From: Candidatus Pacebacteria bacterium CG_4_9_14_0_2_um_filter_40_15
GTDB taxonomy: Bacteria; Patescibacteriota; Microgenomatia; UBA1400; PJMF01
Length of the DNA stretch: 64,000 nucleotides
Assembly (NCBI GenBank): GCA_002788675.1
Contig: PFRS01000001.1
Location: 170,308-234,307, forward strand
Direction: 5' to 3'
Shown here one piece after another: positions 1 through 28,370 of the stretch. The position numbers and the translations under genes are program-made. Position 1 is the stretch's first letter. Each line of letters starts with the position of its first letter. The notes under the pieces were generated by a model. That model was not told the DNA's origin and did not search any database. It worked only from the letters and a program-made list of their open reading frames with translations.

Positions 1-351
1 CTCTCTTCTACCGTGACCATGTAACATCACCACATTTTCTAACACTGTTTCTGGAATATTTCTCTCAGGTATTGCTGGCAATGTAATTTTATCCACCAGA
101 TAAATATGTGGCATGTCTGGCGCTACAATAACAGACTGTTCTAAGGCTTCATTAAAACGACTTGGAGGCCTTCCAACCATAATGGAACCGCCTATGAATG
201 GAATCTTCAGTTCTGAGTTAGGAACGGCAACAGTACTCTTTAAAGCTGCAAGTATTTTAGCAGTCTGACTCTCTTTTTCGTCTGTCTTTTCTTCGACTAT
301 TTCTTCTTCTGTCTCTTCTGAAGCATGTTTACCGATATGTTCACCTATCAT
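1..351 (-). CDS. hypothetical protein, partial (runs off window start)
   Basis: Minus-strand ATG at 351 (MIGEHIGKHASEETEEE...GHGRRE), open to position 1. An in-frame stop lies upstream at 382-384. AGAGGA sits about 15 nt upstream. Not in the ORF track because it is incomplete. No recognisable family. Confidence 0.3.
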   Translation of the reverse strand, partial: MIGEHIGKHASEETEEEIVEEKTDEKESQTAKILAALKSTVAVPNSELKIPFIGGSIMVGRPPSRFNEALEQSVIVAPDMPHIYLVDKITLPAIPERNIPETVLENVVMLHGHGRRE

Positions 352-456
352 CCTTTTAGTATACTGTCCTCTTGCTTCAGTTTAAACCGCTATTCTAAAA
401 TTGATGTGCAAACAATTTTTTCTGCATACTAGCAAGCAAAAACACAAATAAACCAC

Positions 457-485
457 TTGTAAAAAAAAACAATCAAGTATATAAT
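457..485 (+). promoter_or_regulatory. sigma70-like promoter TTGTAA-17nt-TATAAT upstream of rplJ
   Basis: TTGTAA at 457-462, 17-nt A-rich spacer, TATAAT at 480-485. It lies about 215 nt upstream of the rplJ start. Confidence 0.45.
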
Positions 486-702
486 TCCCTTCTAGTCTCC
501 AAAGACAGTGTGCACAGCCACAAAGGTTTTCCCAAACCCGGGCTCAGAAGTCATACCGAGGAACGATACAAAACTTTTGTTTTTCCCCTAGAGGGATCGT
601 CTTCACTCTTCACTTTTTTTGGAAACTACTTACAAGTTGAAACAACACGTTTGGAGCATACTCATGTGCCCGATCGATAAAGTAAATGAGTAGAAAGTAG
701 AT
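486..702 (+). promoter_or_regulatory. rplJ 5' leader (candidate L10(L12)4 autoregulatory leader)
   Basis: About 215-nt untranslated leader between the promoter and rplJ. Long structured leaders upstream of rplJ are the established site of L10 feedback regulation. The structure itself was not verified. Confidence 0.3.
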
Positions 703-1209
703 ATGCCAAGTCAAAAAAATCAAAAGCAGGTTGAAATGCTTAAAGCAAAATTTGATAACGCACAGTCTGTGGCCATTGTTGATTACTCTGGAACAACTGT
801 AAATGATCAAGTAACTTTAAGATCTGCAATCACTGCTGCAGGCGGTGAAATGCTCGTGGCTAAAAATACTCTTATCGACATCGCTGCCGGTAAAGGTAAT
901 CTTAGTGAATCACTTGAAGGTATGAACGCAGTTGTGTTCTCAAACACAGATGCTGTTGCTGCCATCAAGCAACTCTTCGCCTTTCACAAGGACGCAGATA
1001 AATTAACTATCAAGCAAGGAATGATGGACGGAAAAGTCCTCAGTTCTGCAGAAGTAGAAGCTCTCAGTAAGCTTCCAGGTAAAAACGAACTCATCGCGAT
1101 GCTGCTCAACCGCTTACAATCACCAGCTACTGGTCTTGTAAACGTTCTAAAAGCAGGTCAAAGAGACCTCGTCTATGCTCTTAAAGCAATCGCTGAGAAA
1201 GGTGCCTAA
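703..1209 (+). CDS. rplJ: 50S ribosomal protein L10
   Basis: 168 aa. Typical L10 sequence ([21 protein letters not shown]...[10 protein letters not shown]), immediately followed by rplL. Confidence 0.9.
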
Positions 1210-1289
1210 ATTGGCGCTACAGTACAAAGTAAATTAATAAGTAAAAGAATACAAAGCAAACCGACAATAATTCTTAAGAAAGGAAACAT

Positions 1290-1667
1290 ATGTCAGCAAA
1301 CGTAACAAAAATCGTTGATGCAGTTAAGGAACTCTCACTCGTTGAAGTTTCAGAACTCGTTAAAGCTCTCGAAGAAGAGTTTGGTGTAAGTGCAGCAGCT
1401 CCTATGATGATGGGTGCTATGCCAGCAGCAGCTGCAGAAGCAGTTGAAGAAAAGGACGAATTCGACGTCGTTCTCAAAGAAGCAGGATCTAACAAGATCG
1501 CAGCTATTAAAGCTGTTCGCGTTCTCAAGCCAGAACTCGGTCTTGGTGATGCTAAAACCTTCGTTGAATCAGCACCAAAGACTGTTCTCGAAGCAGCAAA
1601 CAAAGATGACGCAGAAGCAGCTAAGAAGTCTCTCGAAGAGGCAGGCTGTATCGTTGAACTCAAATAA
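1290..1667 (+). CDS. rplL: 50S ribosomal protein L7/L12
   Basis: 125 aa. N-terminal dimerisation helix, Ala/Pro/Met-rich hinge ([17 protein letters not shown]), C-terminal domain [29 protein letters not shown]...EAGC. GGAAACATATG RBS. Confidence 0.92.
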
Positions 1668-1700
1668 TTTGATTTCGCGTTTTTCGCTCAAAAATAAAAA

Positions 1701-1726
1701 ACCTCTCAGAAATGAGAGGTTTTTTA
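1701..1726 (+). terminator. rho-independent terminator after rplL
   Basis: CCTCTC-agaaatg-GAGAGG stem-loop followed by TTTTTT. Confidence 0.7.
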
Positions 1727-1827
1727 GTACGTATTTCACAAAAATTTCGCCTTGATCTACTAACTACCTTCCCTCCTCAAAAAAATCTGTCATACTCATA
1801 CATAAACATATAGATACTGAACCCCTC

Positions 1828-2547
1828 ATGCCACCAGAAGCCACTCAAATAAATCTTGAACGTTCACAAAAGTTAAATCAAGCTGCTAAAGAATCATTAG
1901 CTGCAATAGCAAATTGCTTAAAAATATCTCAACTCAATCAAGAAATTTCAGCAGCTGAAGTACAGCAACAACGGGGCAGTTTCAGCCAGGAAGTACTTGA
2001 TACATTACTCCAGAACGCTGAAACAAAACGAATGCACATTCAGGATAAAAATATGAGTACCTTCCTTTCAACAGTCGACGCTGTTGACCATGTTCCTGAC
2101 TTACGCCTCGTGGATGACGCTGCAATTGAAGCAACAAAAACTGGTCTTATCCGCGATGAAAACTACACGCAAATCAAAGAAGCAATTGAGCGTTTAAAAA
2201 TTGAGCTTCAAGACAGAAATGCACAACTAATCATTGCTGAACTTGTCACTCTTTCCAGCTGTACTGCTGTCAGAGATAGTCTAAAGCTACTTCCCATCGC
2301 ACAGAATTCAGAACTTATTAGAGCTGAAAACTTGCCAGCTATCAACCAACAAGCTGAGACACATAGTAAGAACTTGCAAGATAAAAAAACTGATGAGTAT
2401 ACAAAACGTATCCAAACTGCCAAATTACCTCAAGACCTTTTATCTCTCCAAAACCAAATAATCACAGACTACGAACAAGTCGAGATAACCAAAGAACAGT
2501 ATATTAGATTACTTGAAGAAATTCGTAATCATCCTGTTGTGCCTTAG
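1828..2547 (+). CDS. hypothetical protein, predicted coiled-coil, Q/E/L-rich
   Basis: 239-aa ORF with no recognisable catalytic motifs and a heptad-like composition. Confidence 0.45.
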   Translation: MPPEATQINLERSQKLNQAAKESLAAIANCLKISQLNQEISAAEVQQQRGSFSQEVLDTLLQNAETKRMHIQDKNMSTFLSTVDAVDHVPDLRLVDDAAIEATKTGLIRDENYTQIKEAIERLKIELQDRNAQLIIAELVTLSSCTAVRDSLKLLPIAQNSELIRAENLPAINQQAETHSKNLQDKKTDEYTKRIQTAKLPQDLLSLQNQIITDYEQVEITKEQYIRLLEEIRNHPVVP

Positions 2548-2851
2548 CCTGAAAGCGACAACTCAGTTTCAGCACATTTTTGCACATCCTCATGTGGTGT
2601 ATAATTCAAAAAACAGAAATATACCTATGGAACGAACAAAATACCCTCACGATCGCAATAAATATTCTCAATTATTCGCACTTGCAAAAGAATCGTTTCA
2701 AGCGGGAGATGCCGATGGACTTGAAACGTATATATCTCAAGCAAACTCACTCTATTCAGAAGGGTATATGACTCGCCAAGAAAAAAAAGACATCACAAAA
2801 TTGGTACACATCTTTTTAGATGTGCTGCTCCACCCTTTCAACGATATATAA
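2513..2851 (+). CDS. hypothetical small protein with signal-peptide-like N-terminus
   Basis: MKKFVIILLCLSLKA looks like a signal peptide. It overlaps the upstream ORF by 35 nt. An alternative ATG lies at 2627. Confidence 0.35.
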   Translation: MKKFVIILLCLSLKATTQFQHIFAHPHVVYNSKNRNIPMERTKYPHDRNKYSQLFALAKESFQAGDADGLETYISQANSLYSEGYMTRQEKKDITKLVHIFLDVLLHPFNDI

Positions 2852-3163
2852 CACTTTTCTCTTCTCAAGTAGCACCCTTATCCGTAGTAAACACAAATGT
2901 TCTTATTATTTTGTTTTTTTCGAGTATTTTCCCATTGTTTTCCACAGTTAAAAAATTATTGGATGTGACGAATTACATTATAAGACTTTTATGTGGATAA
3001 TATCTAACAGCATCAAATGCTAGCAAATTGCCCATTGACCCACTTCATTCCACTCTGCTACCTTTAATGGTACATACGTTAGTGTTTGTATCACTTCTCA
3101 CCGGAAAGTTAAGATACTCAAGACAAACATTTTGTATCAAGTAATAGCAATAAAGAAAGCAGC

Positions 3164-3433
3164 ATGAACTCACAAACAGTGACACCAAATGTTTCAGAAG
3201 ATGACAAAAAAACCGGTCGAGCAAACGATGCAACAAAGTTAGACATCAATAACCTTCCGGATCTTCTTACCGTACGAGAGGTCGCTGACTTGCTACGAGT
3301 CTCACCGCTCACCATTAAACGATGGGGAAAGCGCGGCAAGCTTCCTGCTATTCGCATCAACTCTCGAGGTGATCGACGTTACAAGAAAGAAGCCGTTCTC
3401 TGGCTTCTTGGAGTCACTCCAGAAGAAGAATAG
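3164..3433 (+). CDS. excisionase/Xis-family helix-turn-helix DNA-binding protein
   Basis: LTVREVADLLRVSPLTIKRWGKRGKLPAIRINSRGDRRYKKEAV matches the excisionase-family HTH_17-type motif. Stand-alone 89-aa protein. Confidence 0.6.
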   Translation: MNSQTVTPNVSEDDKKTGRANDATKLDINNLPDLLTVREVADLLRVSPLTIKRWGKRGKLPAIRINSRGDRRYKKEAVLWLLGVTPEEE

Positions 3434-3460
3434 ACGCTCCTCTACCATTGCAAAATAAGA

Positions 3461-3484
3461 AGCCCCTCAAATGAGGGGCTTTTG
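3461..3484. terminator. bidirectional intrinsic terminator between the HTH gene (+) and the glycosyltransferase (-)
   Basis: AGCCCCTC-aaat-GAGGGGCT hairpin with TTT on the plus side and an A-run upstream that serves the minus strand. Confidence 0.5.
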
Positions 3485-3513
3485 AATTTCTATTAAATAG
3501 TTCATGAGTGAAT

Positions 3514-4329
3514 TTACAAACCCACTAGATCCCGTAAAACCAGCTTGATAAACGTAATCAAGCTCAGTTGTCTTCTCCAGCGCCAGGGCTCTTGAATAAG
3601 GCGGTACAGCCACTCAAGACCTATTGTTCGCATGAAGGCTGGTGCTCTCTGTACTTTTCCAAGTAACATATCAAAGGCACCGCCAACAACCATTGCCAGC
3701 TGCACACCATTCTTTTCAAGAAATGCACGATTATCACTAATCCACTGTTCTTGTGCTGGTGCACCAAGTGCTATAAAAACAACATCAGGTAAAACTTTTT
3801 GTATACAATCTTTAACAGCAGTGTGTTCAACAGTTGTGGGAGCCAAAGCATTCACATACCCACTCGTCCACCAAAGTGTCTGACCACTCACTTTAGAAGC
3901 AGATTTAGGTCCAACATCCACCGGGCACTCCCGAATCTGCCACTGTAAATAGTTTAGATTGTTATAAGATACTCCCCCAATCACCATAACAGTCGCTTTT
4001 TTGTCTTTAGCCTGGGAGAGGATTTTCTTAACGAGGTCTACGCCTGGGATACGTTCTTTGATTTTGTCGCCCCTTCCCACCAGACTAAATAGCCTGGAGG
4101 CAACTACGAGACCAATGCCATCGGGTACTAAGTAGTCCGCCTGGCACAAAACTTTGGCGAAGCTCTTGTTGTTTTGTGCAAGCACAATTTGTTCAGGATT
4201 TGGAGTGAAAAGCGTGACCAACTGCTTTTTTTTGTTTGGTAAAATAGCTATTTTTTCTAGCAGATCGCTCACTCGATTGCTATAAAGGTTTAAATAGGAT
4301 AAAAAGTTTGATTTGTCTGTGTTTTTCAT
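3514..4329 (-). CDS. WecB/TagA/CpsF-family (GT26) glycosyltransferase
   Basis: 271 aa. The C-terminal LEWLYRLIQEPWRWRRQ motif is characteristic of WecG/TagA UDP-ManNAc(A) transferases. Confidence 0.8.
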   Translation of the reverse strand: MKNTDKSNFLSYLNLYSNRVSDLLEKIAILPNKKKQLVTLFTPNPEQIVLAQNNKSFAKVLCQADYLVPDGIGLVVASRLFSLVGRGDKIKERIPGVDLVKKILSQAKDKKATVMVIGGVSYNNLNYLQWQIRECPVDVGPKSASKVSGQTLWWTSGYVNALAPTTVEHTAVKDCIQKVLPDVVFIALGAPAQEQWISDNRAFLEKNGVQLAMVVGGAFDMLLGKVQRAPAFMRTIGLEWLYRLIQEPWRWRRQLSLITFIKLVLRDLVGL

Positions 4330-4807
4330 TGATCTTAGTAAGCATTAAAAAATACAAATACCCAAAACAAAAACGAATAAAAATGCGACTTTTTGCCAGT
4401 CAGTCGATCAAAATATTTTGAGCAACTATGTTGCATTAGTAACACTTTTGTAGTGGTGCTTCCTTATATTGTACACTATGCAAACCTTCGTATATTGTTC
4501 GCGTTATAATTGTGGGACTATTGTCAAACCATATAAAACACGAAGGAAACAGCCATCTGTTGTGCAATGCAGGGCTCCCCTCTTTTCACAGTACCCTCTT
4601 TTTACTGCTTTTAGAGTACATATTATCCAGATGTGTGAACACATTTTCTCATTTTTTTCATTTTCACAATCAGTTTCAAAGGCAGATACATCATCAAATT
4701 GACTTAAAATGAATACACTGACGCCAACCGAGCCTAACCAGACCGAAACATCTTGGTAGCAACCAGGCAGACTCTAGCAGTAGTCGATTTTGAGCGAACA
4801 TACTATA

Positions 4808-6217
4808 ATGAGCTCAAGAAAGCCACCTATGACTGTCAACGAACTTCGAAATCGCTACCCAACATTTCATTTCAGCTCGTGCAAGCACGAACTTTCCGAT
4901 CTTGGTCTGGAAGTCACATTTACCTACTCACTTGAAGACGAGCACACCTTTCATCACAAGGTTATTTTTCATGCTGTCACCCAAGACCTCCTGCAACAGA
5001 TTTCATCCGACGAACTAGATACCTATCTACTCACTATTGGCCTTTCCGAAATGCTCAACTACTGGAAACTAACTGCAAGTCCAAAGGTGCATATTTCAGC
5101 CGTATCACTTTCAGCCACACAACTGGCCTGGTGGAAAGATCTCCTGATTCAAGGCCTGGGCGAATATTTCTATGTAAACCAAATCAAGTTTACCGACCCT
5201 GACTTTGTTACCTTTACGTGCCAAACACCAGCAACACAAGATATTCCACTTAAAAAGGCCATAATTCCTACGTTCAGTACCCCAAAAGTACTCATTCCCG
5301 TTGGTGGTGGCAAAGATTCTGCCGTGACCCTTTCTCTAATTGGCGCAACTGTTCCAGATTCCGCAGGATTTATGGTGAACGCCATTCCTTCTGCGGTTGA
5401 AACCCTTGCCGTCAGCCCAATCAAAACAAAAGTAACCGTGACTCGCATCCTCGATCCACACATGCTAGAGCTTAACTCTCAAGGATTTTTAAATGGGCAT
5501 GTGCCTATTTCATCTGTGTTAGCCTCTATGAGCGTGTTTGCAGGCAGAGTTTTTGGCTATACTCACGTGACCATTTCAAATGAACGCAGCTCTAATGAAG
5601 GCAACATCTTCTACTGCGACCGAGACATAAACCATCAGTACTCTAAAACGTTTGCGTTTGAAGAGAGCTTTACCAGCTATTGCCAAACCTATTTACCTCA
5701 AGAAACCCCTCATTATTTTTCATTCCTCAGACCAATCTACGAACTCCAAATTGCCAAAATATTTGCTCAATTCCCCGAGTACCACGCCCTATTTAGAAGC
5801 TGCAATCGTGGCCAAAAAAACAATTCTTGGTGTGGCGAGTGTTCAAAATGTCTGTTTGCCTACAGCATCATGGTGCCGTTCCTCGGCAAAGAGAAAACCG
5901 CTGAATACTTTGGTAAAGATATGTTCCAAGATACAACACTCTACTACCTAGCAGAAGAATTACTTGGAGTTGGCGAAAAGAAACCATTCGAATGCGTAGG
6001 CACGCATGAAGAAACTATCTGTGCCTTCTACTTAGCCACAAAACAATATCAAGGTGAAACCCTACCACCACTTCTTGCCCTTGTACAAGAAAAAATTCTC
6101 CGTTCAGAAACAGAGTTAGAAGCACGTACTCAAGCAATTTTTGACGGCTGGAATCTCCAACATCTTATTCCTGCACAATTTGAAACTCTCCTAAAGGAAC
6201 ATACCCATGTCGAATGA
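4808..6217 (+). CDS. PP-loop (GGGKDS) ATP-pyrophosphatase superfamily protein, candidate MurL-like partner of MurD
   Basis: IPVGGGKDSAV PP-loop motif and CGECSKC cysteine cluster. The ORF can start at TTG 4790 or ATG 4808. Its 3' end overlaps murD by 11 nt, indicating translational coupling. Confidence 0.55.
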   Translation: MSSRKPPMTVNELRNRYPTFHFSSCKHELSDLGLEVTFTYSLEDEHTFHHKVIFHAVTQDLLQQISSDELDTYLLTIGLSEMLNYWKLTASPKVHISAVSLSATQLAWWKDLLIQGLGEYFYVNQIKFTDPDFVTFTCQTPATQDIPLKKAIIPTFSTPKVLIPVGGGKDSAVTLSLIGATVPDSAGFMVNAIPSAVETLAVSPIKTKVTVTRILDPHMLELNSQGFLNGHVPISSVLASMSVFAGRVFGYTHVTISNERSSNEGNIFYCDRDINHQYSKTFAFEESFTSYCQTYLPQETPHYFSFLRPIYELQIAKIFAQFPEYHALFRSCNRGQKNNSWCGECSKCLFAYSIMVPFLGKEKTAEYFGKDMFQDTTLYYLAEELLGVGEKKPFECVGTHEETICAFYLATKQYQGETLPPLLALVQEKILRSETELEARTQAIFDGWNLQHLIPAQFETLLKEHTHVE

Positions 6218-7574
6218 AGCTTCAGATACAACGATTATCTTAGGTCTTGGTCGGGAGGGCCTCTCAACAGCACGCTACCTACTTTCCAAACATAACAACC
6301 TTTCGCTGCTCCTTCTTGACGAGAAACCACTTTCTGAACTAGAGCCAGAATGGCAAAAATTAGTTGAAAAAGACACTATCTCGTTTGCACAAACTGTGCC
6401 AACTGAAACAGAATCGCCATTAGTCTATTGTGCGCCAGGCATTCCTCCGCACAATCCACTCTATAAGGCACTTGAAGCAAAAAATGCAGTGTTTACCTCA
6501 AACCTTGAACTCTTCTGTACCACTATAAGTCAAGAATATGCAAAAGTTATAACAATTGGAGTCACTGGCACCAAGGGTAAAAGCACTACATCTGCACTTC
6601 TTTACCATGTCTTACAAACGGCTGGCTTTTCTGTGTCATATGCTGGTAATGTGGGCATTCCTGCACTCGATATTCTGCCTGAAATTTCAGCTGAAGAAAC
6701 ACACTATGTTGTGCTCGAACTTTCAAGTCATCAGCTCGGAAGAATCAATACTAGTCCAAATATAGCCGTGGTACAAAATATTGTCCCAGAACATTTAGAC
6801 TACTATGGCACTTTCGAAAACTATCTTGCTGCTAAAATGAACATTGCTAAACATCAAACTGATCACGATCGCATCATCTACTCTCTCGATTTTGAAACAA
6901 GTGCCCAAGTAGCAGCACTCAGTCCCGGTAAAAAATATGGATACAGTCTAGAAAATCCAAATACTAACGAGGTATCTCAGCGCGTTCTTCAACAAATCAA
7001 AGCAAGTAATACTAAATTAATTGGTCAGCATAACCGTTACAATATTGCGCCCAGCATCATCATTGGAGAAGTTCTTGGCATAGATGCTGATCTGATTCAC
7101 ACTGCCTTGGAATCATTCCAACCTCTCTCTCATCGCCTAGAAATGGTGCCCAGCGATGATGGAGTTCTCTATATAAACGACTCACTTGCAACTACTCCAG
7201 AAGCTACCATCGCTGCTATCGATGCATTTATAGATAAACAAATCATTTTAATCTCAGGTGGGTATGATAGATCGCTTGATTTTTTCGATTTAGCAAAAAA
7301 AATTGTCACTACTCGAACTATTAAAGCTATCATTCTCTTTCCTCCCACTGGTGAAAATATTGCAAACTTCATGTATAAAATTAACCCCGATTCAGCAGTC
7401 TTAAAAACAAGCTACTTTAAAGTTGAATCCATGTCTGAAGCAGTCCATATCGCCAAAAAAATGGCCCGTAAAGACGACGTTGTACTTATGAGCCCTGCGG
7501 CTGCCAGCTTTGGTAGATTTAGAGATTACGCAGATCGTGGTAATCAATTTAAGCGCTATGTACAAGGAAACTAA
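6207..7574 (+). CDS. murD: UDP-N-acetylmuramoyl-L-alanine--glutamate ligase (MurD or MurD2-type)
   Basis: 455 aa. Mur ligase P-loop GVTGTKGKSTTSAL and a C-terminal Mur ligase domain. Confidence 0.85.
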   Translation: MSNEASDTTIILGLGREGLSTARYLLSKHNNLSLLLLDEKPLSELEPEWQKLVEKDTISFAQTVPTETESPLVYCAPGIPPHNPLYKALEAKNAVFTSNLELFCTTISQEYAKVITIGVTGTKGKSTTSALLYHVLQTAGFSVSYAGNVGIPALDILPEISAEETHYVVLELSSHQLGRINTSPNIAVVQNIVPEHLDYYGTFENYLAAKMNIAKHQTDHDRIIYSLDFETSAQVAALSPGKKYGYSLENPNTNEVSQRVLQQIKASNTKLIGQHNRYNIAPSIIIGEVLGIDADLIHTALESFQPLSHRLEMVPSDDGVLYINDSLATTPEATIAAIDAFIDKQIILISGGYDRSLDFFDLAKKIVTTRTIKAIILFPPTGENIANFMYKINPDSAVLKTSYFKVESMSEAVHIAKKMARKDDVVLMSPAAASFGRFRDYADRGNQFKRYVQGN

Positions 7575-8283
7575 TTCCCTTGTGATCCGACACTCCTTCA
7601 AGCATTCCGAGCACTTCAATGTCATAAGGTTCTTGATAAAAAACCGTATCAACAACGAGCTCAAGTGCCCCCGCATGATGCAGAGAACCATCAATGGTCG
7701 TGGTAATATTCTTTGGTAAGCCATCTATATAGATACTCTCAAATTGTGAAAAAGTCTCTTTTCCTCGAGCTGAATTAAAATCACCACAGAGTACATGCGA
7801 CGGAAAATCCGCAACTTGTTTTTTCAGTTCAGCAAAATCTCGTGCCTGTTCTTCTGAACTTTCACCATCACCCGTCCAAGTAAAATGTGTGGTTCCAATG
7901 GACATGAGCTGACCACTTCTTGAGTAAAATTTTCCCATAAGTATGCCTCGGTCAACTGAGTTTGGAGTGCTAAATTTGGGAATATTACCCACACCTTTGT
8001 AATAGTGATGCGAATATTCTTCGTGATCTAAGTGACTAAACAGTGCAACTCCCCAAGGACCGCGAGGACTAATTGAGTAGGGATTTGGCTCATCGATAGA
8101 TGTCATGGGTAAAAATTCATACTGACCAAGTGAAAAACCAAGTTGAATTGCCAAACCAGGGAGATCAGCTGCAAATATTTCCTGAAAACAAATTACCTCA
8201 GGGTTAATTCTATTAATGACTGGAACAAAACGATCAAAATGCTGATCGCCTTCAATATTAAGAGTTACAACTGAAATTGCCAT
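7549..8283 (-). CDS. endonuclease/exonuclease/phosphatase (EEP) family protein
   Basis: MAISVVTLNIEGDQH...ICFQE...GDFNS core motifs. Start chosen at the internal ATG 8283, preceded by an AAGGAAAAAT RBS. The upstream in-frame extension to 8448 lacks an RBS. Confidence 0.6.
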   Translation of the reverse strand: MAISVVTLNIEGDQHFDRFVPVINRINPEVICFQEIFAADLPGLAIQLGFSLGQYEFLPMTSIDEPNPYSISPRGPWGVALFSHLDHEEYSHHYYKGVGNIPKFSTPNSVDRGILMGKFYSRSGQLMSIGTTHFTWTGDGESSEEQARDFAELKKQVADFPSHVLCGDFNSARGKETFSQFESIYIDGLPKNITTTIDGSLHHAGALELVVDTVFYQEPYDIEVLGMLEGVSDHKGISFLVHSA

Positions 8284-8391
8284 ATTTTTCCTTCTTAGAC
8301 TCAAACTTGTCTCACCGTCTATTCTGCCACAAAGCAAACCAAATGAGAACTTTCTATTGATCAAAGCATTTGCAAGCGGGACAGAAACACT

Positions 8392-8517
8392 CGTATAGTC
8401 GGTGATGTCTTTTCTGCAACCTGACGATAGTAGATGGAGCAACACCACGTATAGTCGGTGAGTCTTTTCTGCGACCTGACGTTAGTAGATGAAGAAAGGA
8501 TGACTCACCGACTATAC
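8392..8517. repeat. tandem 44-45-bp direct repeat plus 16-bp-stem hairpin overlapping the mreB stop codon
   Basis: Unit CGTATAGTCGGTGA(T)GTCTTTTCTGC(A/G)ACCTGACG(A/T)TAGTAGATG occurs at 8392-8436 and 8448-8491. Its inverted partner GACTCACCGACTATAC at 8502-8517 pairs with 8449-8464. Confidence 0.6.
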
Positions 8518-9527
8518 CCCAAACTCTGCTTAAACTCATCCAAATTCTCAAGTGCAGTACCAATACCTTTAATCACCGCTTCAGCTGGATCGTCCACAAT
8601 CGAAACCGGAACACCTAGCCTATCCGTTAAGTGTTGGCTCAGACCATCAAGATCAGCCCCACCGCCTGAAACTAAAATACCTTTATCAACAATATCAACG
8701 GTGAGTTCTGGTGGAATAGTAGTTAACATATCCTTAATGAGGTACTCATACTCATCAAATACCTTAAGCGTTTGAGCAGCCAAATCTTGAGTATTCACTT
8801 TTATCTCACGTGGGTTGCCTTTAATGCTATCTTTACCTGCAACAAGGAGATTTTTTTGCACAGATTTGTCGAGAGATACTAAAGATCTCTTTAATTTTTC
8901 AGCAGTTTCAAAGGCAACGGTGAACTCTTTTTTGCGCCTGAGTTCATACTGCAAACGCTCTGTGAAGTAATCCCCTGCCTTGTAGGTAGTTGCTGAAGCA
9001 ATCATACTACCAAGTGAAATAACTGCTGCTTCAACGACTCCAGAACCGAGTTGCAGCAAAATCGTGCCAGATGCATCGGCAATTGGCACACCTGCACCAA
9101 TAGAAGCTGCCAATGGTTGAGAGACGGTATACACTTCGCTCGCTCCAACACTGTAGAGTAAATCTGATAGTATCTGCTGACTCACCTCAGTTTTGTTTGC
9201 GGGTACACTGGCCATAATTTTTTTGCTGGCAAACGGCACTTTCGAAGTAACGCGTTGTAAATAAATCCTCAGCAAGGCCTGTGCAGAGTGAAAGTCATAC
9301 ACCATACCTTCTTTTATTGGCTGAAGAACTACTACTCCTTTGAGCACTCGTCCTCGCATAGCTGCTGCTTCTGCTCCAACGGCAACAACTTTTTTGCTAA
9401 CAGTTTCAACAGCTAAGAAAGCTGGCTCACGAAGCAACACTCCTTCTGAAGGAGTCCAAATACGGATCATACTTGATCCAAGATCAATGCCAATCTGCTG
9501 TGAAAAGAGGCGTGAAATGCTAGACAT
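8505..9527 (-). CDS. mreB: MreB-like actin-family rod-shape protein (divergent)
   Basis: IGIDLGSSMIRIW phosphate-1 motif and GILVSGGGADLDGLSQHLTDRLGVPVSIVDDPAEAVIKGIG phosphate-2/adenosine motifs. Confidence 0.8.
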   Translation of the reverse strand: MSSISRLFSQQIGIDLGSSMIRIWTPSEGVLLREPAFLAVETVSKKVVAVGAEAAAMRGRVLKGVVVLQPIKEGMVYDFHSAQALLRIYLQRVTSKVPFASKKIMASVPANKTEVSQQILSDLLYSVGASEVYTVSQPLAASIGAGVPIADASGTILLQLGSGVVEAAVISLGSMIASATTYKAGDYFTERLQYELRRKKEFTVAFETAEKLKRSLVSLDKSVQKNLLVAGKDSIKGNPREIKVNTQDLAAQTLKVFDEYEYLIKDMLTTIPPELTVDIVDKGILVSGGGADLDGLSQHLTDRLGVPVSIVDDPAEAVIKGIGTALENLDEFKQSLGYSR

Positions 9528-9572
9528 ATCCTAAAGATTTCCTTTTGTGTGCTTTCCCTATATAATACGGGT

Positions 9573-10922
9573 ATGACTTCTATTTTCAATAGAAAAACTA
9601 TTTATACTTTTGTCTCTGCAGCTTTCATTATTGTTGGTACTGCTGTGGCTATCCAGTACGCCAAGGGAAACCTGCGCGTTACCGAGCAAGGATTTGTGCA
9701 AGGTACTGGTCTTCTGGCAGCTAACTCTTTTCCTACTGGGGCAGAAGTACACATTGACGACAAACTTGTAACTGCTACTGATGATACCATCTATCTTGAA
9801 CCTGGTCTCTACAATGTGGCCATCATTAAAGAAGGATACACTCCTTGGAACAAACAAGTTCGTATCGCAAAAGAACTCGTTACTCAAACAAATGCACAAC
9901 TCTTCCCGATTGCACCAAGTCTCTCAACACTCACCTTTACTGGCGTAACAAACCTGCAGCCTTCCCCAGATGGCGAAAAAGTCATTTACTACTCTGCTTC
10001 TGCCAGTGCTGAAAAGAAAAATGGTCTCTACATCTTGGGACTTACTCCAAACAACAACCTCACCCTCAGCAAAGGACCTAAGCAAATCGCTGAAGATTCT
10101 CGTAATTTCGACTTAACTACCGCACGCTATATCTGGTCACCTGATTCAACTGAAGTTATGGTTTTTAATGAAAACCGTACGGTTTTACTCGACGCAAGTA
10201 AATTAAATGATCTCGATTTACTGCCAGACATCGGCTACAAACAAAAACAGGTACTCAGCGAGTGGGAGCAAGAAATGTATCTTCGAGAAAGACAATTCTT
10301 AGCAGACTTTCCAGAAGAAATCATTCAGATTGCAACCATGAGTGCTGAAAATATTTACATTTCTCCAGACAAAAAACGTCTTATCTATACCGCGACTGAA
10401 ACCATCGCACTACCAGAAAACATGGTGCCTGATTCATTACCCTCAACCAATTCAATTGAAGAAGTTCGCGCACTAGAGCCTAACACCATCTATATCTATG
10501 ACCGCGAAGAAGACCGCAACTACCGCATAGCCGAGATTGCATCTGATTCTGCTAGAGCTACCAAAAAACTACTTGCATTTGATGCGTTTGATCCAAACTC
10601 TGCGCTTATCACAGCATCTCCAAGTTCCTTCACTAGTCTGCAAGCAACTGAATCTGCTCAAACGGCAAACAACTTTAACAGTTATCACAGTCCTGTGTAT
10701 GCAAATACTTTCCAATGGTATCCAGATTCAAAGCACTTACTTTACGTTGAAAATAATCAGATCAAAATCATGGAATTTGATGGCGGGAACCAAGTTACCC
10801 TCTACTCAGGACCATTTGCTGATCACTTTGTCTACCCTTCTCCAAACGGAGAGCGACTGATTATCATCACAAGCTTTAGCCCAGATTCTCCAATGAATCT
10901 CTACGCTGTTGAACTCAAGTAA
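9573..10922 (+). CDS. membrane-anchored PEGA-domain protein with TolB-like beta-propeller
   Basis: N-terminal TM helix. PEGA motif (FPTGAEVHIDDKLVTATDDTIYLEPGLYNVAIIKEGYTPWNKQVRI). Repeated SPDG/SPD(S/K) blade motifs. ATG 9573 lies 7 nt after a TATAAT box; a GTG alternative lies at 9549. Confidence 0.6.
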   Translation: MTSIFNRKTIYTFVSAAFIIVGTAVAIQYAKGNLRVTEQGFVQGTGLLAANSFPTGAEVHIDDKLVTATDDTIYLEPGLYNVAIIKEGYTPWNKQVRIAKELVTQTNAQLFPIAPSLSTLTFTGVTNLQPSPDGEKVIYYSASASAEKKNGLYILGLTPNNNLTLSKGPKQIAEDSRNFDLTTARYIWSPDSTEVMVFNENRTVLLDASKLNDLDLLPDIGYKQKQVLSEWEQEMYLRERQFLADFPEEIIQIATMSAENIYISPDKKRLIYTATETIALPENMVPDSLPSTNSIEEVRALEPNTIYIYDREEDRNYRIAEIASDSARATKKLLAFDAFDPNSALITASPSSFTSLQATESAQTANNFNSYHSPVYANTFQWYPDSKHLLYVENNQIKIMEFDGGNQVTLYSGPFADHFVYPSPNGERLIIITSFSPDSPMNLYAVELK

Positions 10923-10938
10923 TCATCCTCAAAAAAAT

Positions 10939-12039
10939 TTATCTGTGCAGCTTAAAAACAGTCATACTGCCACTGCCGACTTTGAGTCGAGTGTCATTAT
11001 CTGTGAGAATCACTTTAAAGGTATGCACATAGGGAAACAGTAAGAAAAGCGAGCGCGCAGCTAACTTCATCCGATCACAGTACATTTTGTTAAACAATTC
11101 TGAAAAAGATTCTCGATACATTGTGCCATCACTAATAAACATCTTTTGAAAAAGTGACGGCATCCATAACCTCGAATTCCCCTTAGTAAAAGACTTAAAT
11201 TTCTTTTCGAGCTGATCCACACTGAAATCTAAATTCCAGACGAACTCCCCCACTCCCAAATGCCAGGAAGAACGTACGATTAAGGCGTTTAACAACGTAT
11301 GAATGTCGCTAAAGGCATCTTTTTTTACACCATTTTCAAATGAACGGCCGCCAATACGATCACGACCAACATGCATTTTGTCGGCAGCAACTAACGCCCA
11401 TTGCAACGGCGTTCCATCTGCTAAATCCAATTTATTTTGAATTAACACGGGTTCTTCATGAAATAGAATTGCGTAGAGCGCTTGCCTAAACTCGTATGCA
11501 TTTTTTGAACTACGCTCGAACAACTTGGTAAGTAACCATGCACTGTAAGTGCTGTGCTCTTTACGTGTTTGTAAATTTCCGAGGTCGTGTGTCATACCCA
11601 CTAAAGTCATAAGGACTTCAGTCCTTTCATCGAATATACCACTACCATCAAAGGACGTTCCAGCTCGCTGCAATAGTTCTAAACCTGTCTGACTTACCCA
11701 AAGAGTATGGCGATCGGTATGATCATTAAAACCATTCTTAAGTTCTTGATCTAACACTGGACCCACATAGTTTAATGCTCTCCCTAAGCCGCTATACAGG
11801 TACGAAAGCGCCTCGCCACGAGACTTGATGCTCATGTAATGGTCGAAGTTAAAAACAGGTTTAATTCGAGGGCTGGCGTAGTTGGTTAAAAAAGGGAAAT
11901 CCTTCTTTTGATACGGAATAGAAAGCTCATCGAGGAATTGCCAAAACGGCACATTGTCTGGTCGCAAAAACTGATTGCTGGTGAGGGGGCTAACTAACGG
12001 GGTAGATCGATCTGATTGAGTGTGTTTCTGATTTGCCAT
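10939..12039 (-). CDS. HD-domain phosphohydrolase, dGTPase(Dgt)-like
   Basis: HTDRHTLWVSQTGLEL and MTHDLGNLQTRKEH resemble the His/Asp metal-binding motifs of dNTP triphosphohydrolases. Confidence 0.5.
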   Translation of the reverse strand: MANQKHTQSDRSTPLVSPLTSNQFLRPDNVPFWQFLDELSIPYQKKDFPFLTNYASPRIKPVFNFDHYMSIKSRGEALSYLYSGLGRALNYVGPVLDQELKNGFNDHTDRHTLWVSQTGLELLQRAGTSFDGSGIFDERTEVLMTLVGMTHDLGNLQTRKEHSTYSAWLLTKLFERSSKNAYEFRQALYAILFHEEPVLIQNKLDLADGTPLQWALVAADKMHVGRDRIGGRSFENGVKKDAFSDIHTLLNALIVRSSWHLGVGEFVWNLDFSVDQLEKKFKSFTKGNSRLWMPSLFQKMFISDGTMYRESFSELFNKMYCDRMKLAARSLFLLFPYVHTFKVILTDNDTRLKVGSGSMTVFKLHR

Positions 12040-12177
12040 GATGCCTAGAAATGTCGGTTAGAACACTCTCTTAAGGACGATCGTACTATACCACACTTGA
12101 CTAAAACCAGCGATGAGTAGTTGATGTGCAGAACTACTCACTCCTCAGCGGATGGTATAATTACCCTGAGTGAACAT

Positions 12178-12249
12178 GTCCTCATAGTTCAACGGATAAA
12201 ACAGTTGCCTCCTAAGCGACAGCTCCAGGTTCGATTCCTGGTGGGGACA
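12178..12249 (+). tRNA. tRNA-Arg (anticodon CCT)
   Basis: Hand-folded cloverleaf. Acceptor GTCCTCA/TGGGGAC with one G-U pair. Anticodon stem GTTGC/GCGAC with loop CT-CCT-AA. T-arm CCAGG-TTCGATT-CCTGG. GG present in the D-loop. Discriminator A, no encoded CCA. Confidence 0.7.
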
Positions 12250-12255
12250 CATACG

Positions 12256-12283
12256 AAAAAAGATCCCAAGTGGATCTTTTTTT
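12256..12283 (+). terminator. intrinsic terminator after tRNA-Arg
   Basis: AGATCC-caagt-GGATCT hairpin followed by TTTTTTT. Confidence 0.5.
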
Positions 12284-12401
12284 GTATGTATTCCTAGCAA
12301 AGGCATTGATCCCACGAACAAAGTGAGTTAGTTCTGCCGCCAAGTGACCTTGGAATTTTCTCTTTCTAGAATACACAAATCACGTGGCTAATACCCGGAG
12401 G

Positions 12402-12421
12402 GTAGATTCCTGGTGGGGACA
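12402..12421 (+). repeat. direct repeat of the tRNA-Arg 3' end (GATTCCTGGTGGGGACACA)
   Basis: 19-20-nt exact copy of the tRNA T-arm/acceptor 3' half, about 155 bp downstream of the tRNA. No full cloverleaf can be folded around it. Confidence 0.5.
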
Positions 12422-12423
12422 CA

Positions 12424-12454
12424 AATAAAAAGTGCCAGGCGAAACGCCTGGCAC
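12424..12454 (-). terminator. intrinsic terminator for ndk
   Basis: GTGCCAGGCG-aaa-CGCCTGGCAC hairpin. On the minus strand it is followed by a TTTTTATTT run, directly downstream of the ndk stop. Confidence 0.5.
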
Positions 12455-12476
12455 TTCACAATACATTCTTCTCAAG

Positions 12477-12959
12477 TTACTTTAGCGCATCCATTTCATA
12501 ATCTGCATAGATCACGGCTTCGCGGACACCTGCGTAGTGGAAAAGTTCTTCATCACTAAACACGATAGAAATTTCTCGTTTTGCATCACTGCCACTTGAA
12601 GAAGCGTGGATGAGGTTAAACTGTTGACTCATTCCGAAGTCTCCTCGGATAGAACCTGCTTCAGCCTCGCGGCCAAGAGTTGTTCCGACGAGTTTGCGAA
12701 CGACTGGAACGGCATCAATGCCCTCCCAAACCATACACACAATTGGCATAGAGCCCATGAATGACTTGAGGTCACCAAAGAAGCTTTTGTCTTTGTGCTC
12801 GACGTACCACTCACTGAGTTGCTTGTCATTTAAGTTAACCATCTTTAACCCGATGAGTTTAAGACCTTTGCGCTCGAAGCGACTAATAATTTCACCAATA
12901 AGTCCTCGTTGAAGACCATCTGGCTTGACTAGAACTGCTGTTCTTGTTGTATCAGACAT
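12477..12959 (-). CDS. ndk: nucleoside diphosphate kinase
   Basis: 160 aa, classic NDK fold sequence with an NLIHAS active-site histidine region. Confidence 0.9.
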   Translation of the reverse strand: MSDTTRTAVLVKPDGLQRGLIGEIISRFERKGLKLIGLKMVNLNDKQLSEWYVEHKDKSFFGDLKSFMGSMPIVCMVWEGIDAVPVVRKLVGTTLGREAEAGSIRGDFGMSQQFNLIHASSSGSDAKREISIVFSDEELFHYAGVREAVIYADYEMDALK

Positions 12960-13036
12960 AATGTCCTTTCTGTTGTACTGTTCACTAACAAACGTACGTA
13001 CTATTTACTTTTTTTTACTTATTACAAACCGTTATT

Positions 13037-14338
13037 TTACGCTAAAAACTTCTTAAATTGAGCATCAGATTTGTATGGACCAACAACTGCAAGGCGTAGT
13101 GCTCCAGGTTGAATGATCTCTTTCATGAGCGCATGTACTTCTTCTAAAGTGATTTTTCGAAGTTTAGCAATTACCTCATCTGGATCTTCCGCTTTATTAT
13201 TCAAGAGCTGTCGCAAACCATAGTACTGTGCCACTGACTCACTATCCTCGAAAGAAAGAGTCATCGAACCAATAATGTACTCCTTTGCTGAATCAAGCTC
13301 ATCTTGAGTAAATAAACGCTTTCCGCTGGCGACATCGGTGAACTCTGCTTTGATAACTTCAATTGCTTCAAAAATTCTCTTCGGAGTAACTCCTGCGGAA
13401 GCCCCAAACACACCTGTATCATGGAAGTAGTCAGCTGATGAACGAACATAGTAACATAAGCCTCGCTTCTCTCTCACCTCAGTAAAGAGACGAGAACTCA
13501 TGTTGCCACCAAGCATTACACTAGCTAGCGAAAGCACATTCTTTTGCTCATCAGATCTAGCTATACTCGGCCAGCCGAGTACTAAATGAGCTTGCTCAGT
13601 TTTTTTGTATGCAACTTTAAGTTTATGAGGAGACCATGGGCCTTTTTTGCTCATTTTAGTAGTCACATCAAACTTGCCAGTAGCTCGTACATCTGTTTCT
13701 TTGCTAAATGCTTCAAGCACAAGCTTCTTTGTATCAGCAGACTCAACAACCGATGGATCTCCAGCAAGAATCAAGACCATATTACCTAAACCATACCATT
13801 GTTTAAGGAAACGTTTAAAGTTCTCTGTTTTAAGTGAAGAAACTGTCTCCTTTGAACCAAGCACGTCATGTCCTAAAGCTGAGCCTTCAAAAGTCATGCG
13901 TTCAAAGATATTCTCCACTTGTCGCATTGGCATGTCTTCATACATATTTATTTCTTCAATAATGACACCTTTTTCTCGATCAATGTCTTCTTGCTTTAAT
14001 AATGGACGAAGCAGCATGTCTGAAACAACATCAATGGCCACGCCTACGTGCTTACTTGAGGATTTTACATAGTATCCCGTGTATTCTTTGCTTGTAAATG
14101 CATTAAAGTCAGCTCCAATCGAGTCGATAGACTTTGCCAATATTTGCGCAGTTGGATAACTCTGAGTACCTTTGAAAACCATATGTTCAAAGAAGTGGGC
14201 AATCCCCTCTTCTCGAGGTTGTTCAAATCGAGAACCAGTATTACACAACGCAAGTACGGTGACTGACTCCACGCCTGCCATTGGGACCACCATCACCGGT
14301 AATCCATTTTTTAGTTTTGAGAGTGAATGTTTCGTCAT
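13037..14338 (-). CDS. M16-family zinc metallopeptidase (insulinase/pitrilysin-like)
   Basis: Inverted zinc motif HFFEH...E near the N-terminus. About 430 aa, with the two-domain M16 architecture. Confidence 0.8.
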   Translation of the reverse strand: MTKHSLSKLKNGLPVMVVPMAGVESVTVLALCNTGSRFEQPREEGIAHFFEHMVFKGTQSYPTAQILAKSIDSIGADFNAFTSKEYTGYYVKSSSKHVGVAIDVVSDMLLRPLLKQEDIDREKGVIIEEINMYEDMPMRQVENIFERMTFEGSALGHDVLGSKETVSSLKTENFKRFLKQWYGLGNMVLILAGDPSVVESADTKKLVLEAFSKETDVRATGKFDVTTKMSKKGPWSPHKLKVAYKKTEQAHLVLGWPSIARSDEQKNVLSLASVMLGGNMSSRLFTEVREKRGLCYYVRSSADYFHDTGVFGASAGVTPKRIFEAIEVIKAEFTDVASGKRLFTQDELDSAKEYIIGSMTLSFEDSESVAQYYGLRQLLNNKAEDPDEVIAKLRKITLEEVHALMKEIIQPGALRLAVVGPYKSDAQFKKFLA

Positions 14339-14397
14339 CGTACAATTCCTTTTACTTTCGTCTCACCTACTCTTATTAGAGTAAGTGTCTAATTCTT

Positions 14398-16380: not shown

Positions 16381-17308
16381 TCGGTGTTATGTTCTAAGAA
16401 CATACTTATCAAAGAGACCAATCACTTGGTGGTACCACTCTCCATTTTTGTACTATCGCTACTACAAACTCAGCAACTTGCATTTCACAAGTGTGTGCGT
16501 ATCGTGCATCTACGGATCATATTTTGATGATCGTTCGTTAGATTTTTACCTCGCAACTATTAAGATGCGGAGTAAAAGTCTCATGAGGGCTCGCGACTTC
16601 CCCTGGTGACGAAGCTACAAGGATAGTATATCAAATAAAACGAGTACGGTCTAACACACAAACTTGACCCGAATGGTATTGAGTACATTTTGTTGTTTTG
16701 ACCCTTTGTAAATTATTGTCAATAGTCCATGATTCCAGACTATTATTTTGTACTCTATATGCACATATTTGGAGAGGTGCACTTCAAAAAGCAAGTATCT
16801 TCTCACTTTCGGGTATTATTCGCTTTCACCGCTATATACATTTTTTCTTGCAAAAAAAATGAAAATGAAAAGACTCCTTGCAACTGTAAAAAAGAAATGA
16901 AGACCACTTCAAAGTACTCATTTCCCAAATATACACAAGAGTGTGAAATAAAATAAACCACAGAACATGTTTAAGAGCCTGATCATGAAAAGTTGTGACC
17001 AAGGCCCAACTACTCGGACGCTGTATAACACAAATGAATCTACCAGATAAGACCAGGCATAGCTATTGGGCATAAAAAAAACCACTTATTGAGAACATGA
17101 AACATAGGTTATGCAAAAATATGCCTATTTTTGGCATTTCACAGCCCTGTTTTTGTACTGAGCAGTTTTCTAGATCTGGTTTCGGGATGCGTTCGGTTTT
17201 ATACATTTTTACTACTTGCATGCAATGCCCAAACATGAAAGATTTAGTACTTATACATGCAAATTAACATAGTTTTGAGCTAAAATTGCTATCACTGCCA
17301 ATTTCTTG

Positions 17309-18232
17309 CTATTTTCCGCTCAAAATTGCGCCCTCTTTAAGGATAAATTCGACGGTACCTTCAGTATCAGTACGAAATAATCGACTACCAATATCCTCTA
17401 TTTGACGTAGTACTTGAGGTGAGGGATGCCCATATGTGTTATTTTTGCCAACTGAGACTACTGAAATTTCGGGTGATATTTCCCCGAGAAACTCCTTTGC
17501 CGTGCTTGTTTTAGCCCCGTGGTGCCCTATTTTTAGCACATTCACGGACTGTAGCGTTTGACTATCTAGCAATGCCAACTCGGCTTCTTTCTCGAGGTCA
17601 CCAGACAAGAATACACCCACCCCATCAATATCCATAATTATGCCTATAGATAGGTTGTTTTTTGTAGTTTTTGCAATTACATTTCCATCTAACCAACAGC
17701 TATTTTTATCCCATAACTGTGTTTCGGCTATGCTCTCAAAACAGTCACTTTCCAGGCGTGAGGCAAAAAAGGGATTGATCACCTTTCCAGTAATTTTTGT
17801 ATCTAAATGAATAATTTCACCATTAAACGGAAGTACTACTTCTCCTCCAGTGGCATGTATCTGGCTTATTTCCTCGAGTACTGTGCTTGAAATGAGTGTG
17901 TCTGGCTCTAGCGGTAAGTACATAATTGCTGAAACAACATACGATTCAAAGACAAATGGAAAGCCCCCAATGTGATCTGCATCTGGATGAGTTAACACTA
18001 CTAACTCAATTTTTTTATCCCAAAATGGCATCTTTTCTTCAAGACATTCTAAAACAGATGCATTTCTGCCTGTATCTACAAGCATTTGAGTTCCCCCATG
18101 GGTTATAAGGATAGCATCTCCTTGACCAACATCGCAAAAGATTACTCGCGACTGAGTCGTTGTTTCCTCAATAAAAAGGCCTCCAGCAACAAGAAAGCTT
18201 ATCAAGATGAGATTATAAAAAAGGCGTAGCAC
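17309..18232 (-). CDS. comEC: ComEC/Rec2 C-terminal metallo-beta-lactamase domain (downstream fragment of a frameshifted comEC)
   Basis: CDVGQGDAILI and HPDADHIGG MBL motifs. It begins with GTG overlapping the upstream fragment by 20 nt, in the +1 frame. Confidence 0.65.
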   Translation of the reverse strand: MLRLFYNLILISFLVAGGLFIEETTTQSRVIFCDVGQGDAILITHGGTQMLVDTGRNASVLECLEEKMPFWDKKIELVVLTHPDADHIGGFPFVFESYVVSAIMYLPLEPDTLISSTVLEEISQIHATGGEVVLPFNGEIIHLDTKITGKVINPFFASRLESDCFESIAETQLWDKNSCWLDGNVIAKTTKNNLSIGIIMDIDGVGVFLSGDLEKEAELALLDSQTLQSVNVLKIGHHGAKTSTAKEFLGEISPEISVVSVGKNNTYGHPSPQVLRQIEDIGSRLFRTDTEGTVEFILKEGAILSGK

Positions 18233-20357: not shown

Positions 20358-20443
20358 AGATCAAGATTAGACCATAATTCTGACATGTTCTGTAGAAAAG
20401 TGGAGCACTGCATCCTGGAGCAACGTCCTCCAGTTAAGTAAGA

Positions 20444-28369: not shown

Positions 28370-28370
28370 T

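Follow-up and report, generated by a model that had tools for sequence, protein, structure and literature searches.

A predicted murL–murD2 operon for the L-glutamate-then-epimerise branch of peptidoglycan precursor synthesis in Candidatus Pacebacteria

The 64,000-nucleotide stretch of contig PFRS01000001.1 from Candidatus Pacebacteria bacterium CG_4_9_14_0_2_um_filter_40_15, below called the window, carries on its plus strand two overlapping open reading frames (ORFs). The second, ORF2, encodes a MurD-type ligase of peptidoglycan precursor synthesis. The first, ORF1, encodes a PP-loop protein that we consider to be a homologue of MurL, the epimerase which in Xanthomonas acts after the ligase MurD2 has added L-glutamate (L-Glu) to the precursor. 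The features of the gene pair are as follows.

4790..6217, plus strand: ORF1 (murL), longest form, opening with TTG, 475 amino acids (aa)
4808..6217, plus strand: murL, likely form, 469 aa, identified by NF041275, Pfam domains, homology to Xanthomonas sacchari MurL and an AlphaFold2 model
6194..6198, plus strand: AAGGA, Shine-Dalgarno-like motif for murD inside the 3' end of murL, 8 nucleotides (nt) before the ATG, read from the sequence
6207..6217, plus strand: 11-nt overlap, with the murD ATG at 6207 lying within the last four murL codons (CATGTCGAATGA) and the murL stop TGA at 6215..6217
6207..7574, plus strand: ORF2, murD-type ligase, 455 aa, identified by TIGR01087 and Mur ligase domains

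The likely start of ORF1 is the ATG at 4808, which yields the form used by public records; an alternative ATG at 4829, giving 462 aa, is used in some members of the protein cluster. A preliminary description of this DNA had put the length at 470 aa, one residue off, and had given the 11-nt overlap exactly; the two motifs it had singled out in the protein, IPVGGGKDSAV and CGECSKC, are indeed found, at residues 163–173 and 342–348. Both ORFs are intact and of full length, with all catalytic residues present. The overlap, together with the Shine-Dalgarno-like motif inside murL, suggests that the two genes form a translationally coupled operon. The scan for promoters and terminators around the operon produced matches no more than expected by chance.

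The NCBIfam model of MurL, NF041275, matches ORF1 from end to end, residues 16–461 of the protein being aligned with positions 6–442 of the 447 in the model (E = 1.9e-64, 217.8 bits). The precomputed Pfam annotation of an identical public protein lists PF26299 (MurL_N) and PF26298 (MurL_epimerase_C), both unmarked and so with E ≤ 1e-5. The local Pfam copy, which is without the MurL_N and MurL_epimerase_C models, gave only a weak match to DUF6395. Some of the closest homologues are named 'UDP-N-acetyl-alpha-D-muramoyl-L-alanyl-L-glutamate epimerase' by JGI/IMG.

A tblastn search against PLSDB found a 508-kb record of X. sacchari with an annotated murL followed by murD. The MurL encoded there scores 836.5 bits with NF041275, above the equivalog cutoff of 700 bits, and is therefore a true orthologue of the enzyme that has been characterised. 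Its BLASTP alignment with ORF1 covers 329 residues at 30% identity (E = 6e-51). The record itself, the 'plasmid' of X. sacchari R1 (L086, NZ_CP010410.1), carries murL, murD, a gene for bifunctional aspartate kinase/diaminopimelate decarboxylase and ssb, and looks chromosomal.

We then aligned 60 MurLs from the Patescibacteria, Bacteroidota, Bacillota, Chloroflexota and X. sacchari. Thirty-two positions are invariant across this alignment, and ORF1 has the invariant residue at every one of them: Y85, K87, G167-G168-K169-D170, R213, N223, N229-G230-H231, P233, S261, N275-H276-Q277, K280, E285, S305, R308-P309, S331-C332-N333, W341-C342, C345, K347-C348, K392-P393 and C396. Judged by these comparisons, ORF1 is a full-length homologue of the Xanthomonas MurL.

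MurL-like paralogues were also seen on actinomycete plasmids, namely Pseudonocardia alni pPaSha1 (locus L087, 4764..6164), NZ_CP010991 and NZ_CP011869, with an NF041275 score of 323 bits. At L087, the only plasmid locus examined, there is no Mur ligase neighbour. Since several MurL-invariant residues are altered in the L087 protein (K169R, N223A, N229I, R308G, P309G), it may have a different function.

ORF2 scores 335.8 bits with the TIGR01087 murD model (cutoff 211.95) and has the domains Mur_ligase_M, Mur_ligase_C and MurD-like_N. Its closest solved structures are the MurD of 3lk7, that of 4buc and that of E. coli, and it is 32% identical to X. sacchari MurD2 (E = 2e-47). The catalytic residues K125, N148, H196, K210 and S434 are conserved, their E. 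coli equivalents K115, N138, H183, K198 and S415 being kept throughout the compared MurDs. The genuine X. sacchari MurD2 passes TIGR01087 too, with 298.3 bits, and hence neither passing this model nor the name 'D-glutamate ligase' is informative about the stereochemistry of the substrate.

The determinants of the latter are known from the Xanthomonas enzyme. In X. oryzae, MurD2 (XOO_1320) adds L-Glu, and MurL (XOO_1319) then epimerises it with ATP (reviewed by Ogasawara and Dairi, PMC8788868); in the preliminary description the tags were swapped, XOO_1320 being assigned to MurL. Residues E197 and R358 of MurD2, corresponding to D182 and K348 of E. coli MurD, set the stereospecificity, and the E197D/R358K double mutant switches to D-glutamate (D-Glu). 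Further, K319T makes E. coli MurD accept L-Glu, while P433A and F435L in X. oryzae MurD2 leave the specificity unaltered (PMC8788868). The corresponding positions of ORF2 were read by aligning it with MurD of E. coli MG1655, in E. coli crystal numbering. Three of them map as follows.

6789..6791, plus strand: Glu195, aligned with D182 of E. coli MurD and E197 of X. oryzae MurD2, an L-Glu determinant
7185..7187, plus strand: Leu327, equivalent to E. coli K319 by alignment
7269..7271, plus strand: Arg355, aligned with K348 of E. coli MurD and R358 of X. oryzae MurD2, an L-Glu determinant

The residues in the compared groups of ligases are these.

ORF2 ligase: position 182, E195; 319, L327; 348, R355; 414, A433; 416, F435
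X. sacchari MurD2: position 182, E; 319, I; 348, R; 414, P; 416, F
Five solved D-Glu ligases: position 182, D or T; 319, K; 348, K or R; 414, A; 416, L, F or W
120 MurDs of Pseudomonas and Enterobacteriaceae: position 182, D; 319, K; 348, K; 414, A; 416, L (114) or F (6)
73 MurL-linked MurDs: position 182, E (67), D (5) or G (1); 319, I (44), L (27), A (1) or F (1), never K; 348, R (72) or K (1); 414, A (48), P (13), S (10), T (1) or C (1); 416, Y (40), F (31), L (1) or a gap (1)

Thus at 182, 319 and 348 the canonical D-Glu ligases show D or T, K, and K or R, and ORF2 departs from this pattern with E, L and R. The absence of lysine at position 319 as a criterion was derived in this analysis, alongside the published K319T result. 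The control of 120 MurDs is narrow, as the profile search from the five solved D-Glu ligases returned Pseudomonas and Enterobacteriaceae only. In the neighbour-joining tree of 74 sequences, the solved D-Glu ligases are split from the MurL-linked set and X. sacchari MurD2 with a bootstrap of 65/100. Only 16 replicates out of 100 put X. sacchari MurD2 together with the canonical gammaproteobacterial MurDs. The E/L/R signature and the tree support the prediction that ORF2 is a MurD2-like enzyme ligating L-Glu.

The pairing of the two genes is conserved far beyond this genome. We scanned for linkage using two conserved MurL peptides and one genome per GTDB species, which yielded at least 587 confirmed stretches, that is, at least 587 species-representative genomes with MurL; the best 80 loci were kept. 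Four of these 80 were set aside because the downstream sequence was too short to judge. Among the 76 informative loci, which come from several phyla, murL is followed by murD on the same strand in 72 (71 with a full MurD and one with a partial MurD at a contig end). At the loci L010, L017, L020 and L043, where more than 3.5 kb is available downstream of murL, no MurD homologue is present anywhere in the fetched sequence. The unfused pairs that could be compared number 65, with stop/start overlaps in 33 (mostly −4 or −8 nt) and gaps of 0–30 nt in a further 12, together 45 of the 65.

Three further loci encode murL-murD as a single fused protein, as in the 929-aa protein of Marinilabiliales at L031, where MurL occupies residues 32–433 and MurD residues 493–921. 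The fusion loci noted are L005, L031 and L064, and the protein representatives are P0188, P0170 and P0149. A HMMER search of 1.84 billion cluster representatives (50% identity clusters) produced 2,413 MurL relatives, and for 1,113 the E-value was 1e-30 or lower. Among the 150 best representatives, about 26 exceed 780 aa in length. Eight long proteins were scanned: five have the MurL–Mur ligase order, two the Mur ligase–MurL order (one of them with a MurC/E/F-type N-domain), and one is a MurB–MurL fusion. This conserved synteny and these fusions place MurL firmly within the pathway that builds UDP-MurNAc-peptides in the cytoplasm, and in this family coupling to a MurD-type ligase is the norm. 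The pair also occurs in cultured organisms, among them Minisyncoccus archaeiphilus PMX.108 and Pseudobutyrivibrio xylanivorans DSM 14809.

The fold of ORF1 was modelled with AlphaFold2 from 58 homologues (mean predicted local distance difference test score 96.3, predicted template-modelling score 0.94). The Foldseek search of the PDB with this model gave as the top match the QueC-family protein QatC (9y01_B; E = 7.9e-4, probability 0.99), followed by TtuA, a Pyrococcus NAD-synthetase-like protein, MnmA/TrmU, NMN/NAD synthetase, GMP synthetase and argininosuccinate synthase. The global template-modelling (TM) scores of the fold matches are low, 0.35–0.38, because MurL has extra domains. All these neighbours are substrate-adenylating PP-loop ATP pyrophosphatases; QatC is described in PMC13279940 and PMC13376578. 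By its modelled fold MurL is thus supported as belonging among the PP-loop ATP pyrophosphatases, which fits AMP-forming adenylation of a carboxylate. A sequence search of the PDB gave no relative of MurL with a solved structure. The sites predicted in ORF1 are listed below.

5294..5326, plus strand: PP-loop IPVGGGKDSAV, residues 163–173 (G166–S171 being GGGKDS), predicted ATP pyrophosphatase/adenylation site
5801..5851, plus strand: cysteine cluster C332-x9-C342-x2-C345-x2-C348, including CGECSKC at residues 342–348 (5831..5851), predicted QueC-like zinc site, with all four cysteines invariant in 60 MurLs
5993..5995, plus strand: Cys396 in the KPFECVG motif, with K392, P393 and C396 invariant, candidate acid/base for exchange of the alpha-proton

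Within the PP-loop, G167, G168, K169 and D170 are invariant and S171 is at least 95% conserved in the 60 MurLs, Xanthomonas included. The MurL loop, GGGKDS, differs from the SGGxDS type in that glycine replaces the first serine. The C-x9-C-x2-C-x2-C spacing is one that we take to resemble the zinc site of QueC.

The following scheme is consistent with these features. The ligase (6207..7574) would add L-glutamate, not D-glutamate, to UDP-MurNAc-L-Ala. The PP-loop of MurL would adenylate the alpha-carboxylate of the terminal L-Glu, with conversion of ATP to AMP and pyrophosphate, and the adenylation would acidify the alpha-proton. The invariant Cys396, or else His231, His276 or Lys280, may then exchange this proton, acting as a proton shuttle, and the Cys4 cluster may bind a metal. 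The Xanthomonas MurL depends on ATP and Mg2+, uses one ATP, releases AMP and works in the L to D direction only (PMC8788868). The fold matches, the GGGKDS loop and the cysteine cluster fit this biochemistry and so suggest a structural basis for the adenylation step, which was proposed in the same 2021 review, where MurL is said to lack 'known conserved domains' and its mechanism is called unclear (PMC8788868).

Taken together, the data suggest, with a probability of about 0.85, that the two ORFs form a murL–murD2 operon serving the branch of peptidoglycan precursor synthesis in which L-Glu is added first and epimerised afterwards. Support comes from the homology to characterised enzymes, the invariant residues, the MurD2 specificity residues, the synteny and fusions, and the PP-loop fold. 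We infer the actual substrates of the two enzymes, the adenylation chemistry in ORF1 and the role of MurL as the only source of D-Glu in this organism. The preliminary description had proposed this branch and had looked to similarity with Xanthomonas MurL, to grouping of the ligase with MurD2 and to an adenylating PP-loop enzyme; the first is borne out by the NF041275 and X. sacchari matches (E = 1.9e-64; 30% identity, E = 6e-51), the second by the specificity residues and by the placement on the MurD2/MurL-linked side of the tree (65% bootstrap), and the third is backed by the Foldseek matches. The gene pair adds a new lineage to a known, under-appreciated pathway; as a notable extension of it, the finding is less exceptional than the preliminary description had assumed, as the family is already in Pfam, some homologues carry the epimerase name in IMG, and the pair is present in hundreds of species from several phyla.

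Several observations weigh against this assignment. The NF041275 score of ORF1, 217.8 bits, is well below the equivalog cutoff of 700 bits. The model, however, is named for the Xanthomonadales and trained on them, and since MurLs of the Lachnospiraceae and Marinilabiliales likewise score only about 250–260 bits, we ascribe the low score to lineage distance rather than to a missing feature. In ORF2, A433 is as in E. coli and not proline as in X. oryzae MurD2. Since proline is found in only 13 of the 73 MurL-linked MurDs, and since P433A and F435L leave the specificity unchanged, Pro/Phe at 414/416 is not a true defining feature of MurD2. For the MurD2 clade the tree gives a bootstrap of only 65%, which is moderate support, and its canonical outgroup is small. 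The hhalign comparison of the MurL profile with E. coli QueC is not significant (probability 3.7%), with only the PP-loop region aligned. No match to the Pfam QueC family (PF06508) was found in ORF1 either, and on these two grounds we rejected MurL as a member of the QueC sequence family; the QueC-like assignment therefore rests on the fold, the motif and the cysteine spacing.

The remaining points against it concern the supply of D-Glu. The preliminary description had named the absence of murI as a further sign of the alternative route. Within the 64-kb window, no Asp_Glu_race (PF01177) or Aminotran_4 (PF01063) domain was found in ORFs of at least 150 aa; the window covers about 5% of the genome of about 1.2 Mb. 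An active glutamate racemase is reported for at least one bacterium of the candidate phyla radiation (CPR), a member of the Saccharibacteria, according to a reference cited in PMC11974145. One alternative is redundancy: MurI or a D-amino-acid aminotransferase may also be encoded, the ligase may accept both enantiomers of Glu, and MurL may serve as a backup or as a proofreader of L-Glu mis-incorporation. Besides the confinement of the search to the window and the Saccharibacteria report as relayed in that paper, the slight dual specificity of some MurDs, e.g. that of S. mutans (PMC8788868), agrees with such an arrangement. However, the known organisms with MurD2 and MurL are without D-Glu-forming genes (PMC8788868), and the signature of the ligase is the full E/L/R rather than a mixed one. 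We consider redundancy unlikely. Genomes of CPR bacteria are strongly reduced, which also makes it unlikely.

An alternative is that the PP-loop protein catalyses a different reaction on the muropeptide, for instance amidation or some other transfer at the adenylated alpha-carboxylate of Glu, and the MurD is an ordinary D-Glu ligase. In PP-loop enzymes, as the fold neighbours illustrate, adenylation is usually coupled to the attack of a nucleophile such as ammonia, sulfur or an amine; moreover, the ligase is called 'D-glutamate ligase' in GenBank and passes the TIGR01087 cutoff, and the MurL-like paralogues on Pseudonocardia plasmids occur without a Mur ligase neighbour. Yet ORF1 keeps all 32 invariant residues, several of which are lost in the Pseudonocardia paralogue, ORF2 is without the D/K/K triad, TIGR01087 does not discriminate between the two types of ligases, and no glutaminase or amidotransferase partner adjoins the gene pair. 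This makes a different reaction very improbable. An amidotransferase-like role for the PP-loop protein was rejected, because ORF1 keeps the residues conserved in genuine MurL and the ligase carries the MurD2 signature. Finally, that the two genes are incidental neighbours or decaying pseudogenes, as might be suspected in a metagenome-assembled genome (MAG), is effectively refuted by the intact ORFs with all catalytic residues, by the identical pair on nine contigs from several samples, and by the synteny and fusion proteins conserved across phyla.

The predicted murL–murD2 operon can be compared with known systems. As in Xanthomonas, murL precedes murD and their ends overlap, by 20 nt in X. 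sacchari and by 11 nt in the window; the homology of MurL extends over the full length with all family-invariant residues in common, and the ligase, like the Xanthomonas MurD2, has E and R as determinants and is hydrophobic at the position of K319. Unlike the Xanthomonas genes, the window pair belongs to a member of the Patescibacteria/CPR (Candidatus Pacebacteria), outside the published distribution. It is only about 30–32% identical to the Xanthomonas pair, with MurL below the Xanthomonadales equivalog cutoff and alanine at the position of P433.

With canonical MurD (E. coli, T. maritima, S. agalactiae), which works with MurI, ORF2 shares the three-domain architecture, the catalytic residues and the TIGR01087 match. 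It differs in having E, L and R at positions 182, 319 and 348, in lying outside the dcw cluster and being coupled to murL, and in its predicted substrate, L-Glu. With QueC (7-cyano-7-deazaguanine synthase) and QatC (of the QatABCD defence system), MurL has in common the PP-loop motif, QatC being the best PDB match. In contrast to them, it shows no significant profile similarity and carries an additional domain, MurL_N, at the N-terminus and additional helices at the C-terminus; its substrate would be a UDP-muropeptide and the outcome inversion and hydrolysis, as opposed to formation of an amide or a nitrile. QueC adenylates a carboxylate.

The identical pair was also found on the Candidatus Pacebacteria MAG GCA_002790935.1 (PFWC01000005.1) and on several JGI metagenome contigs, nine contigs from several samples in all, and a cluster member, at least 90% identical, resides on a 1.19-Mb contig. 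In the GenBank annotation of the MAG, MurL is a 'hypothetical protein'. GenBank and RefSeq apply the name 'D-glutamate ligase' to the window ligase and to X. sacchari MurD2 alike. As TIGR01087 passes a genuine MurD2, the stereochemistry in these ligase annotations is probably wrong.

Orthologues of X. oryzae MurL/MurD2 have been reported in Stenotrophomonas, Micromonospora and Salinispora (Feng et al. 2017, via the review PMC8788868). The published distribution comprises the Xanthomonadales, three alphaproteobacterial genera and the Micromonosporaceae; cyanobacteria, a fungus and an amoeba are listed with orthologues of 'low similarity' (PMC8788868). In the literature library searched, there was no paper tying MurL/MurD2 to CPR bacteria, Bacteroidales or Lachnospiraceae, and none tying MurL to PP-loop/QueC enzymes. 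The family was already in Pfam, and some of the CPR-like homologues already carried the epimerase name in IMG. Judged by the genome and protein searches described above, the family is much broader than the literature states.

A wider proposal can be put forward only tentatively, at slightly below even odds: MurD2/MurL may be a major, and possibly the sole, source of D-Glu for peptidoglycan in this organism, in much of the Patescibacteria, and in many Bacteroidales and Lachnospiraceae, with MurL being a QueC-like PP-loop/zinc enzyme that uses Cys396 as a proton shuttle. Were it a major D-Glu route in these groups, it would be no mere curiosity of 'relatively few genera', the drug-target idea would need revising, and the databases would be systematically mislabelling MurL-linked ligases as D-glutamate ligases. 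Were the enzyme as proposed, it would explain in structural terms, for the first time, how an epimerase can be driven by ATP in one direction. Through the murL–murD2 operon, a CPR organism would complete the D-glutamate step of its cell-wall synthesis with no need of a racemase, and the wide spread of MurL/MurD2 weakens the premise of a 'narrow-spectrum target'. The signature of E182, a residue other than lysine at 319, and R348 (E. coli numbering), together with adjacency to murL, could serve for re-annotation of MurD2, and the PP-loop/QueC-like fold offers testable catalytic residues.

Upstream of the operon, an unusually long non-coding stretch of about 480 nt (4330..4807) separates murL from a divergent gene of a WecG/TagA-type glycosyltransferase (3514..4329, minus strand); it has no Rfam match and no promoter match above chance. 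Downstream lies a convergent ORF of the Exo_endo_phos family (7549..8448, minus strand), which would share 26 nt with the 3' end of murD; its length differs between public gene calls (244, 289 and 299 aa). The Rfam scan of the window produced one tRNA only, away from the murL–murD operon.

Elsewhere in the window, genes for DNA uptake are found at 17309..20357 on the minus strand. ComEA is encoded at 19656..20357, and ComEC appears to be split into two overlapping ORFs, with the Competence domain at 18213..19202 and the metallo-beta-lactamase domain at 17309..18232 (both on the minus strand). There are two giant ORFs. The one at 20444..27316 (minus strand, 2,290 aa) has the domains Peptidase_S74 (endosialidase chaperone) and H-type lectin near the C-terminus; in the one at 45736..63675 (plus strand, 5,979 aa), the first 2,500 aa match only an N-terminal phage-integrase SAM-like domain. 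The GC skew on the plus strand is negative (C exceeding G) in 30 of the 32 2-kb bins of the window (1..64000), whatever the orientation of the genes, and a strand-wide disparity of G and C has been reported for some Microgenomates genomes (PMC7143001).

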